The notes under the pieces: generated by a model
What the model was told of the DNA's origin: nothing
Seen by the model: the letters and a program-made list of their open reading frames with translations, nothing else
The model's database searches: none
From: a bacterium
GTDB lineage: Bacteria; SAR324; NAC60-12
Direction of reading: 5' to 3'
NCBI GenBank assembly: GCA_965205865.1
Contig: CBDBHR010000030.1
Span: 305,465 to 369,464 of the forward strand
Length of the DNA: 64,000 bases
Made by a program: the position numbers and the translations under genes
Part shown: one piece after another, positions 42,776-45,991 of the stretch
Layout of the letters: each line of letters begins with the position of its first letter
How positions within the stretch are numbered: position 1 is the first letter of the stretch

Positions 42776-45596
42776 CTAATAACCCATTGCTTCCTTCAGC
42801 TCACTATCAATCCAGAGGCGGGTCAAAACCTGGTTAAATTGACCGTTTCCCATGTACACTTCATTGTTAAAACCTATGAGCCACGGTTGGACCGCGGTAA
42901 AAGCTGGAAAATTAGGAGTCCATATCGACCAGAACTCCTCTATCCCATACTGATTCAACTCTCCAGCTAACCTGTACTGCTCGTCGAGAGTGGTAGCGGC
43001 TAAGGCGGCTTCAAACTTGGCTGTATAAACCGGGTCGTTGACATTGGAGCTGTTCCAATGTGCGCCCGGCGTATAACGTTTTTGGGTGCCCACTGGATCC
43101 CCATAGTTAGCCATTTCCGCATTGATCATTTCGAAATCCCTCTCACCTCTTTTAGCGGAAAATTCAGCTCCTGGCTGTACATCAATCTCTGCTACATCAA
43201 TGCCAATCTTATTCCAGTATGAAAAGACTAATTGTACATAGTTCAAATCGTAGCGGTCGATATGCAAGAACTTGGTCTTGAATCTAATGCCGTCCGCGCC
43301 GCGCTTGTACCCGGCCTCATCAAGGAGCTTTTCGGCACCTTCCGGGTCGTAGTCAAAGACTTTCTTGACGTCTTCGGGCCAATCTTCAAATTGGGTGACA
43401 ACCTCTGTATAAGACCGGTTTAGCTGCCCCTGGGGTATCGTATCGGCATAACCCCCAAAGTAGGTATTGTTAATTTCTTCGAGGTTTATTGCCATTTGCA
43501 TGGCCTTGCGCACCCGGATGTCGGAAAAATACGGCAACTGAACGTTGATGCCAAAACCATTATCCGACCGACCGGTCCACGGCCATATCACGATTTCGGG
43601 GTTGGTCCGCTTAAGGCTCTCTACCTGATCGAGACTCCTGATTTGAGTGTTGCCGAGCACACCCATGTAATCAAGCTTACCCGTGCGCAGTGCCGCCAGC
43701 TGTGTTGCCACTTCGGGCATAATCAGGTTCCTTAACTGGTCAATATAGGGCAGGCGGTTCTCCGCGTATTTTTCGTCGTAGGCCCAGTAGTCAGGATTCT
43801 TGTCCCAGGTGATAGAGCTGCCCTCGGTCCAGTCAGTCAGCATCATGGGTCCGGTGCCGACCAGGTTCCTCCAATCCGAAATGTCGCCGTGTTCCTTGAT
43901 TACCTCGGGCGGGTATATCCAGGCAGACCAGTCGCCGAGGATAGAAGTCAGCGCACCGAGGTATGGCTCCTTCAGCTTAAAAACAACCGTCCATTTGTCA
44001 GTGACCTCTATCGATTCCAAATCCCAACTTTGGAAACTATAAGCTGTTTGGGCTTTTTTCGGTGAAACCGCTACCCATACCCAACAGACGATGATAGTTA
44101 AACTCGATATCCTGGGCCGTCAGCTCACGACCGTTCATCGGAGGCTTATCATGCCAGTGAACGCCCTGGCGGACTTTGATGATAATAGTTAGTGGGTCGG
44201 GCTGCGACCAGCTTTCCGCCAGCGCCCCTCTCGAGTAGGCTGGAGGGACGTTGAGATATTTGAAGGCAAATTTGTCCCTATCTATTCCCCAGTCCGCGAT
44301 GGCCAGCTTCTCTGTAACGACCCCGGTGGATACATTCGACCCTCCACCAGACAGCAAGGAGTCAGGACCCGGCCACTCTGCTTTCAGGGCAAAGGTTAAT
44401 GTCCCGCCATACTCTGGCGCGGACACCATCTTGCCGGTGGAGGGGTCTTTGACCATGTCCGAGGCGGCAAAGGTCAAGGTCGTGAAACCAAGTACAATCA
44501 TGCTGAGGAGGGCCAGCATGGAACGCCCTTTTGAGTTTCGATGATGATTTATCATAATAATCCTTTCTTTCATTTGAGAAAAAGTAAACCAAAAGCACCC
44601 CGCCTGGAAATTTTCAAGCATCATTTCCGGCTGGGATACCGTTTTGAGTATGGTCAATCCATACGATTTCCGTTCCCTTTGAGGAACGGAAGCTAAAACC
44701 CATTGATCACAGGCCAGTTCCTGATCCAAGCGGAACAGCCGATAGGCCAGATAGATCAACGGGTTGAACCAATAAACACACTTGAGCGCTAAAGCCCAGG
44801 TGATGAAGAGAGAATCTTTGCGTTGTAGATGGGCCAGTTCATGAGCGAGAATGAATTCCGTTTCCCGTGGGGAAAAGCGTTCGGCAAACCGGAGGGGCAG
44901 CACCAGATTGGGATGCAACCATCCGATCACTGCAGGCCCCTGAATCCGTGCGGAGACGAACACGTCCCCCTGGAACTTCAGGCCCATTGTGAGGCACAGT
45001 TTTTCGAGCAACCTTCTCATTTCCAGGGAAGGTTTCCGCTTCTCTCGCAGCAGTTGCTTCTGAAAATGCGCATGCCGGTGTAATGTGAAAAGTCCCATCA
45101 TCACGAATCCCCCAAGCCACACGAAGAAAATGATCGTCATGCCGTCTATTTCCGAAAAAACAGGCCACCCGCCAACCGAGGCGGAGGATGGGGAATCTCG
45201 AGGGGGGAAGCTGGGCTCACTCAAACGCTCCGCGGGAAAGGGAGAAGCCTTTTCCTGTATCGCCGTTTTCATGGATTCCCACCGAGCCTTATTCTCTACG
45301 TTGATCTGTTGGAATAAGGCTTCGGACGCAGTGAGGGGCTTTTTGTTTTGCAGCAGGGCAAACACCCCTTGCTGCATCTTGAAGTTATAAAGGATGTTTT
45401 GCCAGGAAGGGAGGAGACTGAGTTGTGTTTGAGGGGTGACGATGATCATCATTTTAAGAGCAGGGAGCAGCCAAAGCGCGTGACTCCATTTTGCCCCAAA
45501 ATAACGAACCACCGGTTTGCGAATCACGAACACGAAAACGATTAAAAGACTGGACCACAGGGTGGCCTCAGCTAATCCGTACATTAGAGTTGCCAT
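42776..45596 (-). CDS. BlaR1/MecR1-type M56 peptidase fused to family-5 SBP; split by a +1 frameshift near 44045
   Basis: HELAH zinc motif, WFNPL, DQELACD, KERI, TM segment, then MVKDPSTGKMVSAPEYGG; SBP continues in 44020-42776. Confidence 0.8.
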
Positions 45597-45616
45597 TTCA
45601 ACACCTCCTCAAGGGA

Positions 45617-45991
45617 TCAATCCATTTTTTCTAAAAGAATCTTCAATTCCTCAATTTCTTGCTTCGTCAATAATTCTTGTTCGGCAAAACTTGTGAGCAG
45701 CGGAGAGACTTTTCCGCCAAACCAATTCTGCAAAAAATTTCTACTTTCCAAATGCAGATACACTTTTCGACAGACCATGGGAAAATACAGATACTTCCTC
45801 TTGTCCTTTTTGAACCCCAAAATCTTTTTCTTTAACAAGCGGTTCAACAGAGTCTTTACTGTCTTGGCCTGCCAATCCTTCTGAGGAGCAAGGGTTTCAA
45901 TCACCTCTTGGGCTGATTGCGGTGATTTTTCCCATAGCACCTCCATCACTTCACGCTCTGCATTGCTGATCTTCCTTGTCATCTTCGTCAT
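45617..45991 (-). CDS. BlaI/MecI/CopY-family repressor
   Basis: ISNAEREVMEVLW, TVKTLLNRLLKK, FGGKVSPL. Confidence 0.92.
   Translation of the reverse strand: MTKMTRKISNAEREVMEVLWEKSPQSAQEVIETLAPQKDWQAKTVKTLLNRLLKKKILGFKKDKRKYLYFPMVCRKVYLHLESRNFLQNWFGGKVSPLLTSFAEQELLTKQEIEELKILLEKMD

Follow-up and report, generated by a model that had tools for sequence, protein, structure and literature searches.

Proteolytic signalling of the BlaR1 type is understood almost only for the sensing of beta-lactams. In the BlaR1-BlaI and MecR1-MecI pairs of Staphylococcus aureus and Bacillus licheniformis, a repressor is encoded beside a membrane-bound M56 protease with HExxH and ExxxD motifs, the sensor is a penicillin-binding domain resembling class D beta-lactamases, and the operators are dyads of the TACANNTGTA type. 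Here we describe a cassette on the minus strand of a stretch of 64,000 nucleotides from a SAR324 bacterium (hereafter the window, to which all positions refer), in which the gene order is blaI, a gene for an M56 protease fused to a solute-binding protein (SBP), and dppB. It shares with the known pairs the repressor beside the M56 protease, the HExxH and ExxxD motifs, the collinear topology and the dyads. It differs from them in its sensor, which is a family-5 SBP of 555 residues, in the presence of dppB behind the fusion and the absence of a beta-lactamase or penicillin-binding protein gene from the cassette, and in the position of blaI as the first gene. The cassette is an uncharacterised, conserved variant of the known BlaI/BlaR1 signalling. 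Our favoured reading, which we give a slightly better than even chance, is that of a one-step proteolytic signalling cassette with a whole family-5 SBP of the ATP-binding cassette (ABC) transporters as its periplasmic sensor; the gating by a ligand, the cleavage of BlaI and the identity of the controlled genes are inferred from homology alone.

Pairs of an M56 protease and a BlaI-type repressor that do not sense beta-lactams have also been described, namely CenIR of Clostridioides difficile, BlaIR of Mycobacterium tuberculosis and M. abscessus, and PvmSR of Pseudomonas aeruginosa. Their proteases have no recognisable sensor or a short disordered one, whereas here a complete ligand-binding protein of known fold is present. 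According to the accessible part of a paper on CenIR (10.64898/2026.04.08.717257, PMC13492132), about 15,000 M56 proteins fall into 254 InterPro architectures, and most of them bear other, unexplained outside domains. Nine of these architectures have 100 or more entries; the ones named there are that with no identifiable domain and those with TonB_C, TP, M23, Plug, CarbopepD_reg_2, DUF4825 and Amidase_3; no SBP is among these named common architectures, and the complete set of 254 may include the combination PF05569 with PF00496. A sensor-less system in P. aeruginosa is reported in the accessible part of another source (10.64898/2026.08.03.742534). The second commonest architecture in the paper on CenIR, M56 with TonB_C, likewise joins the protease to a part used in nutrient uptake (10.64898/2026.04.08.717257), and it is frequent among the nearest M56 relatives of the fusion. 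These proteins differ from ours in their partner domain, are uncharacterised, and have M56 modules at most 41-45% identical to the one in the window.

Family-5 SBPs are known to recognise ligands on behalf of membrane transducers, as in the pairs DppA-Tap, CBP-ChiS and AibA-TlpB (partly accessible review, PMC8050422). Those SBPs are free and dock non-covalently to chemoreceptors, kinases or cyclases, whereas the SBP described here is fused and its output would be a protease. In the accessible text of the same review, the words protease, peptidase and fused do not occur. In the literature on M56/BlaR1 and on SBPs that we went through, neither an SBP coupled to a protease output nor a combination of M56 with SBP_bac_5 was found. 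Covalently fused or membrane-tethered binding domains exist in the ABC importers GlnPQ and OpuA. Like our cassette with its neighbouring permease genes, these importers have a solute-binding domain attached to a membrane protein. In them it sits on the permease and serves transport only, whereas here it sits on a regulator protease.

The cassette and its parts are arranged as follows:

46016..46360, minus strand: promoter/operator array upstream of blaI, with three tandem units of ~150 bp and six dyads

46033..45617, minus strand: blaI open reading frame (ORF), 138 amino acids (aa), with a likely ATG start at 45991 (45617..45991); Penicillinase_R (PF03965), E 1.3e-33

45596..44037, minus strand: M56 ORF, 519 aa, with Peptidase_M56 and the start of SBP_bac_5

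44550..45596, minus strand: M56 (BlaR1-type) zinc-metalloprotease module, residues 1-349; PF05569, E 9e-57

44829-44843, minus strand: HELAH, residues 252-256, in the M56 module

44706-44726, minus strand: DQELACD, residues 291-297, in the M56 module

Residues 342-346 of the 519-aa ORF, minus strand: MKERI, in the M56 module

44574..44594, minus strand: conserved FWFTFSQ loop, which aligns to the F284-containing loop of BlaR1

44553..44567, minus strand: GAAAGGA resembling a Shine-Dalgarno (SD) sequence, then 5 nt and an in-frame ATG (Met348, MINHH)

44460..44525, minus strand: fourth transmembrane helix (TM4), signal-peptide-like segment RSMLALLSMIVLGFTTLTFAAS that would bring the chain across into the periplasm; hydropathy peak of 2.06, alignment with BlaR1 TM4, helix in the AlphaFold2 (AF2) models

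44400..44420, minus strand: APEYGGT motif, 5' breakpoint of the exchange of SBP bodies, recognised by the drop in identity after the motif

44045, minus strand: extra base, left out in contigs of four runs

42776..44459, minus strand: complete family-5 (cluster C, DppA/OppA/NikA-type) solute-binding domain in two frames; Pfam, AF2 and Foldseek

44020..42776, minus strand: ORF of the C-terminal SBP part, 414 aa; SBP_bac_5 positions 66-360, E 9e-46

41684..42646, minus strand: dppB-type ABC permease, 320 aa from its Met, in an ORF open to 42763; BPD_transp_1 with its N-terminal domain (PF00528, E 1.1e-33; PF19300)

All the elements listed by the earlier note on this locus, which had been made from the letters alone, are present: blaI, HELAH, ELACD, KERI, the transmembrane segment, the SBP N-terminus in the same ORF, and dppB. 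The Peptidase_M56 match spans residues 8-349 of the 519-aa ORF. This module consists of TM1-TM3, an outside loop (L1) of ~90 residues and a cytoplasmic protease domain with HELAH and DQELACD, and a hydropathy scan placed TM4, a hydrophobic helix, at residues 358-379. The ORF aligns with residues 164-324 of S. aureus BlaR1 (8exp, E 9e-11), whereby HELAH falls on HEYAH and dqELacD on dnEveaD. The hydrophobic helix coincides with BlaR1 TM4, and the FWFTFSQ loop with the BlaR1 loop that contains F284, the residue changed in the structure 8exs ('F284A mutant'). In 82 aligned M56 sequences E254, H257, WFNP277-280, R290, D292, E294, C297, D298 and Y313 are invariant, and H253 is conserved in at least 90% of them. 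An AF2 model of residues 1-400 reached a mean predicted local distance difference test score (pLDDT) of 81.2. When it was compared to the PDB with Foldseek, six S. aureus BlaR1 chains took ranks 1-6 and M48-type peptidases came next. Hydropathy, AF2 and the BlaR1 alignment agree on four membrane helices: the protease lies between TM3 and TM4, and the sensor follows TM4; the orientation of the module in the membrane is a predicted one. No match of the penicillin-binding PF00905 type was seen in the fusion, the C-terminal 555 residues of which correspond to SBP_bac_5, and an adjacent beta-lactamase or PBP2a gene was found in none of the five inspected cassettes.

The sensor part is a complete SBP. 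The first 52 matched positions of the SBP_bac_5 profile (4-55) fall on residues 457-512 of the 519-aa ORF and positions 66-360 on the 414-aa ORF, and an intact paralogue matches the profile at E 4.7e-64. The AF2 model of this kind of intact protein, the paralogue of 940 aa, has a pLDDT of 85.8 and a predicted TM-score of 0.65, with a confident M56 core and an SBP part at pLDDT 90-98. In both AF2 models TM4 is a helix at 357-376. Foldseek with the SBP domain retrieved DppA (6ofq, E 1.5e-32). Over more than 530 columns the fold agrees with those of DppA, OppA, NikA and related proteins, at target-normalised TM-scores of 0.66-0.83. Structure prediction, which had been proposed earlier as a check of the fusion, thus gives the M56 core, TM4 and then a complete DppA/NikA-like SBP fold. 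An attempt to name the ligand from relatives in the PDB was given up, since the nearest ones, of the DppA/HbpA/AibA type, are too distant at ~20% identity.

In the window the fusion is split. The two SBP pieces lie in different frames and are one gene interrupted by a single extra base: deletion of base 44045 in a script resulted in 939 codons without a stop, which bears out the earlier proposal that removal of one base near this position yields a 939-aa fusion. After the deletion, the loop from GFTE to ESI has 13 residues, the same as in the intact positional orthologue from another genome of the genus (L007). Contigs from public runs were aligned to 43400-44700, and only parts with cover were used as evidence; the share of the sampled words present in any one run was at most 0.74. 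Base 44045 is absent from the sole contig covering the site in each of four runs from four studies (X1, X4, X8 and X15), and the depth that carries the loss equals the total depth (19.6, 11.4, 8.82 and 8.4). The covering contigs otherwise differ from the window by 2-4 letters over 198-373 bases. Thus, at 44037-44060, where a check at read level had been called for, the contigs of all four other runs give an intact frame. The ratio of nonsynonymous to synonymous substitution rates (dN/dS) of the SBP part against the orthologue is alike on both sides of the break, 0.65 before and 0.64 after it. Since four other runs are without the base and dN/dS is equal across the break, the break most likely stems from an error of assembly or from a mutation that is very recent and private to the strain, and the fusion gene is almost certainly intact in nature. 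The earlier note had considered decay, a sequencing error or a switch at this site; the four runs without the base speak for an error or a strain-private change alike, and a programmed frameshift or switch found no support, since the paralogues do not conserve the site, which falls in a variable loop. A homopolymer slip in the A6/T6 run at 44054-44059 was also rejected, because the extra base lies outside this run. In the three DNA-type runs (X1, X4 and X8) an in-frame deletion of 3 bases relative to the window was seen at 44252, in the N-terminal lobe of the SBP.

Intact fusions exist elsewhere. Seven protein clusters of 926-945 aa contain both Pfam domains; their identity to the 519-aa ORF is 69-77%. 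The source genome harbours two further fusions, on contigs C23 and C26, with open frames of 940 and 953 aa; both have blaI before and dppB after them, and the C26 copy is then also followed by dppC. The other genome of the genus has three open frames of 940, 950 and 939 aa, one of which, L007, is the positional orthologue: it too has pckA upstream and these dyads, and its DNA is 87% identical to the window over 3.3 kb. Junction-spanning matches were obtained in 2 of the 88 genomes of the phylum that were searched, which are the two genomes of the genus; in the other 86 no fusion was found. The fusion is in frame in all ten full-length copies examined, each with HEL[AV]H and DQELACD, and a shorter member of the clade, P0227, reads through the break site. 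The earlier note had reckoned with a one-off chimera or misassembly that has no intact homologues anywhere. Intact copies are present in several assemblies, and the two genomes of the genus hold six copies. Thus, we are dealing with a real and conserved gene rather than with a one-off chimera, and its family is confined so far to one genus.

Outside this clade the relatives are distant. Among the best 150 of 83,985 hits in 1.84 billion representatives there was no junction-spanning protein besides P0077, a near-copy of 394 aa. A scan of metagenome contigs with the M56 part gave 30 loci, all of them distant (at most 45% identity, short parts), with no close relatives among them, and the next M56 relatives outside the clade are at most 41% identical. 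A protein of 1091 aa from a JGI metagenome (P0043) combines M56 (E 4e-36) with an SBP_bac_1 match far downstream that scores 26.1 bits against a cut-off of 26. On account of this marginal score it makes only a weak second example of an M56-SBP protein; it may be an independent M56 fusion to another SBP family.

That the gene is nevertheless a decaying, functionless chimera, born of recombination among the more than 100 SBP cassettes and with the frameshift as real decay, we regard as very improbable. The window copy is frameshifted, the region downstream of it is full of dppB and dppC fragments, shortened relatives exist, and a dN/dS of 0.65 in the SBP part would agree with such an origin. This explanation is at odds with the contigs of the four other runs and the equal ratios across the break, with the retention of three paralogues in both species, and with the catalytic motifs, which are intact in ten of ten copies. 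Moreover, blaI and the M56 part are under purifying selection, with dN/dS values against the orthologue of 0.05 and 0.28, respectively. For comparison, close pairs of free SBP paralogues have dN/dS values of 0.2-1.15 (13 usable pairs, two of them above 1; a 14th pair with only 24 codons was dropped), and relaxed or diversifying selection appears to act on the SBP family as a whole.

The fusion is composed of a constant and a variable part. Between the window and its orthologue, DNA identity is 90-99% through blaI, M56 and TM4 and 68-89% just after APEYGGT. In ten intact fusions the mean pairwise identity is 92% for TM1-2, 80% for loop L1, 81% for the protease, 92% for the junction and 55% for the SBP; the sequence FWFTFSQMKERIxMINHHxNSKGRSMLAL is found in nine of the ten. 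From YGGT on, the fused P0003 and P0007 share ~95% identity with free SBPs of the source genome, to which they are unrelated before this motif. In a tree of SBP domains (FastTree, 106 rows, 11 of them fused, rows below 39% identity to the query excluded), the fused domains are scattered among the free ones. The label changes between fused and free nine times, at least six of these changes being forced by strongly supported branches, and a single origin of the fused SBP domains was rejected on this basis. The scatter in the tree, the breakpoint at YGGT and the contrast in identity between adapter and SBP indicate that a constant adapter repeatedly receives new SBP bodies from free cassettes.

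The junction itself resembles the start of a free SBP gene. A block of ~170 nt is nearly invariant in five cassettes, synonymous sites included. The arrangement GAAAGGA-N5/6-ATG is also found before many free SBP genes, an SD-like word being present upstream of 37 of 91 crudely chosen starts. In the fusion, the position of the SBP signal peptide is occupied by TM4 of the M56 protein, in frame and with no stop. This fits an origin of the fusion by read-through into the leader and signal peptide of an SBP gene, and the GAAAGGA-ATG at the junction may be left over from a free SBP gene, or may still serve as the start of one.

These features invite the explanation that the fusion is a mere linkage device, in which the SBP would be separated by signal peptidase after TM4 or by initiation at Met348, and the M56 protein would work like a sensor-less BlaR. 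Such a separate SBP would account for GAAAGGA-N5-ATG, which is invariant in five of five cassettes in a form shared with free SBP genes, and for the end of TM4 (..LTFAAS / ..LTFAAQ), which resembles the c-region of the signal peptides of free SBPs; sensor-less BlaR homologues are known from the accessible parts of two sources (10.64898/2026.04.08.717257, 10.64898/2026.08.03.742534). We consider it unlikely, given that no stop separates M56 and SBP in any of the ten full-length copies despite many replacements of the SBP body, that the junction block is, together with TM1-2, the most conserved part of the protein (92%), and that TM4 aligns with the uncleaved TM4 of BlaR1.

Evidence for a BlaI-type circuit comes also from the first gene of the cassette and the DNA before it. 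The blaI product is a winged-helix repressor of the BlaI/MecI/CopY family, with a DNA-binding domain at its N-terminus and a helical part for dimerisation at its C-terminus. PF03965 covers profile positions 1-114 of 115, and the protein aligns without gaps to residues 3-122 of the 123 of MecI (1sd6/1okr, E 1e-22). The gene is located directly upstream of the fusion in five of five inspected cassettes. The scissile bond of BlaI/MecI is presumably N101-F102, in the linker/dimerisation helix. With this pair aligns S115-F116 (45686-45691), and S-F is kept in all five copies.

Three tandem units of ~150 bp precede blaI. In every unit a TATAAT/TATAAA-like hexamer is flanked by two dyads, one of the GATTACCTGTGTAATT type and one GATTACAAAGGTAATC. 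The pattern TTAC-N4-GTAA occurs six times in the window, always at 46018-46350; 0.28 occurrences are expected by chance, and none of 100 shuffles reached six. The exact form GATTAC-N4-GTAATC is present at three sites of the array and nowhere else in the 4.74-Mb genome. The operator consensus of the BlaI family is given as TACANNTGTA in the accessible part of a published study (PMC7253601). Each of the dyads fits it at 7 of the 8 specified bases by our own count, and they are predicted operators on the grounds of their sequence. These dyads recur in the orthologue, where they form two units. In the two remaining paralogous cassettes the repeated elements upstream are different ones, and the BlaI proteins deviate beside the recognition helix. 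Since both the upstream elements and the BlaI residues near the recognition helix differ between the cassettes, the few sequences at hand would fit three separate, insulated circuits. The promoter regions are tandemly duplicated in all three cassettes. In the C26 cassette (L005 12412-12606) the duplicated upstream region includes a truncated second blaI (residues 1-70, 54% identity).

Based on these observations, we propose the following course of events for the favoured sensor reading. The BlaI-family repressor would bind the pairs of TTAC-N4-GTAA dyads on either side of the -10-like hexamers, and would thereby keep blaI, the M56::SBP gene and dppB low. The 939-aa membrane protein would consist of TM1-3, a cytoplasmic zinc protease with HELAH and ExxxD, TM4, a tether of ~20 residues and a periplasmic SBP. 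Binding of a solute would close the SBP, and the closed SBP would act on the protease module at its outer face, in all likelihood on loop L1 rather than through the flexible tether. The protease would then be switched on and cut BlaI between its DNA-binding and dimerisation parts, and the cassette would be derepressed. The idea of the earlier note that the binding protein is the sensor of a BlaR1-type protease has gained from the intact homologues, the collinearity with BlaR1 up to TM4, the alignment over the full length of MecI and the dyads, while the sensing step itself is drawn from homology.

Several observations weigh against this course of events. L1 and the tether, through which closure might be transmitted, are modelled with low confidence: residues 54-88 and 111-145 have pLDDT below 50, and residues 371-380 are at ~56. 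BlaR1 is triggered by covalent acylation, whereas binding to an SBP would be reversible, and the pair at the position of N101-F102 is S-F, not N-F. The junction bears an SD-like word, an ATG and a signal-peptide-like end, so that the SBP could be made or released separately. The dN/dS of 0.64-0.65 in the SBP part could mean relaxed constraint, and the clade contains shortened or frameshifted members (P0077, 394 aa; P0228, 499 aa; P0229, 389 aa). Finally, the window cassette is without dppC and ATPases.

The last point bears on a broader role, in which the protein would be a full transceptor, that is, the tethered SBP would both deliver its solute to DppB(C) with shared ATPases and trigger the protease. 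No other SBP gene is present in the cassette, whose genes are ordered as in the free SBP-dppB-dppC cassettes; in more than 100 of these, the transporter SBP has the position taken here by the fused one. The permease gene dppB follows the fusion in five of five cassettes, and the C26 paralogue keeps dppB and dppC. The ~8 dppD/F pairs elsewhere in the genome (18 oligo_HPY matches, none adjacent to a fusion cassette) could serve many cassettes. Against a transport function of the fused SBP speaks that dppC is found directly after dppB only in the C26 copy and is missing there from the window and C23 cassettes, that no ATPase is adjacent, and that the permeases could be served instead by the 104 free full-length SBPs. 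On balance we find the transceptor rather unlikely.

It is also tempting to think of plug-and-play sensors, in which the adapter (BlaI, M56, TM4 and the tether to APEYGGT) would take up by recombination any SBP body from the pool of more than 100 fast-diversifying free cassettes and so direct the proteolytic switch to new solutes, and autocleavage at FWFTFSQ would free the TM4-anchored SBP for the co-induced DppB(C), so that the protein would be first a receptor and then a transporter subunit. We hold this extended scheme to be distinctly unlikely.

If the sensor reading is right, the cassette offers a practical approach to a signal outside the beta-lactam field. Since a complete binding protein of well-known fold forms the outside domain, its signal can be searched directly by ordinary ligand screens on the isolated domain, and the predicted operator is a ready reporter. 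SBP bodies are exchanged in nature while the adapter stays constant, which suggests a modular principle that biosensors could adopt. Limits are set by the host, an uncultured sponge-associated SAR324 bacterium, and by the occurrence of the family in one genus so far.

The source genome comprises 4.74 Mb in 30 contigs and is 91.9% complete; its rpoB product shares 84% identity with proteins that bear the name SAR324 cluster bacterium, and sponge metagenomes are among the public runs containing the stretch. The window cassette has pckA upstream and dppB downstream. The M56::SBP gene and dppB may form one operon, to judge from their shared strand and from the spacing of ~129 nt between the stop codon of the SBP and the likely start of dppB (ATG at 42646). 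Parts of the fusion gene are covered by contigs from the RNA library X15; this is weak evidence of transcription, since DNA may occur in RNA libraries. Rfam gave no match at the gathering score in 40000-47000, and a scan for promoters and terminators was uninformative, with 9 promoter-like and 10 terminator-like sites as compared to 6.1 and 6.5 in shuffled sequences.

The fused SBPs belong to a large expansion. By tblastn, 194 SBP, 168 DppB and 172 DppC regions were found in the genome, many of which are fragments. The full-length SBP paralogues number 107, three fused and 104 free, the free ones with ordinary signal peptides. SBP5-dppB-dppC cassettes without adjacent ATPases are seen genome-wide, for example at 1-3000 and 10000-16000 of the window and on contigs C23-C30. 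Close relatives of the SBPs (up to 69% identity) are found in metagenome-assembled genomes of Spirochaetia and Dehalococcoidia, which suggests exchange between co-resident symbionts.

The surroundings of the cassettes also bear marks of rearrangement. The dppB of the window is 86% identical to that of the C23 cassette. Downstream of it, at ~30443-41600 on the minus strand, there are at least nine fragments of dppB or dppC, such as a second dppB 3' end at 40250-40717, and among them lie a gene with an ORF6N domain (39516-40184) and a gene with coiled-coil repeats (41015-41626); a similar coiled-coil gene follows the C26 cassette. In the C23 cassette, a YhgA-like transposase gene (PF04754; L004 12817-13890) is located between dppB and, ~2.5 kb on, a dppB fragment and dppC, which suggests that this cassette was split by an insertion. 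Free SBP genes (for example C30:864094 and C28:378468, and the proteins P0108 and P0126) have long conserved, often tandemly repeated leaders that are open in frame, with translations of the form ..REIVENVLSGxKAGFKSILN..ERKKM.. or ..APQRVNHSQNPQIKEV..LVGLNPAG.., and gene callers count these leaders as protein.

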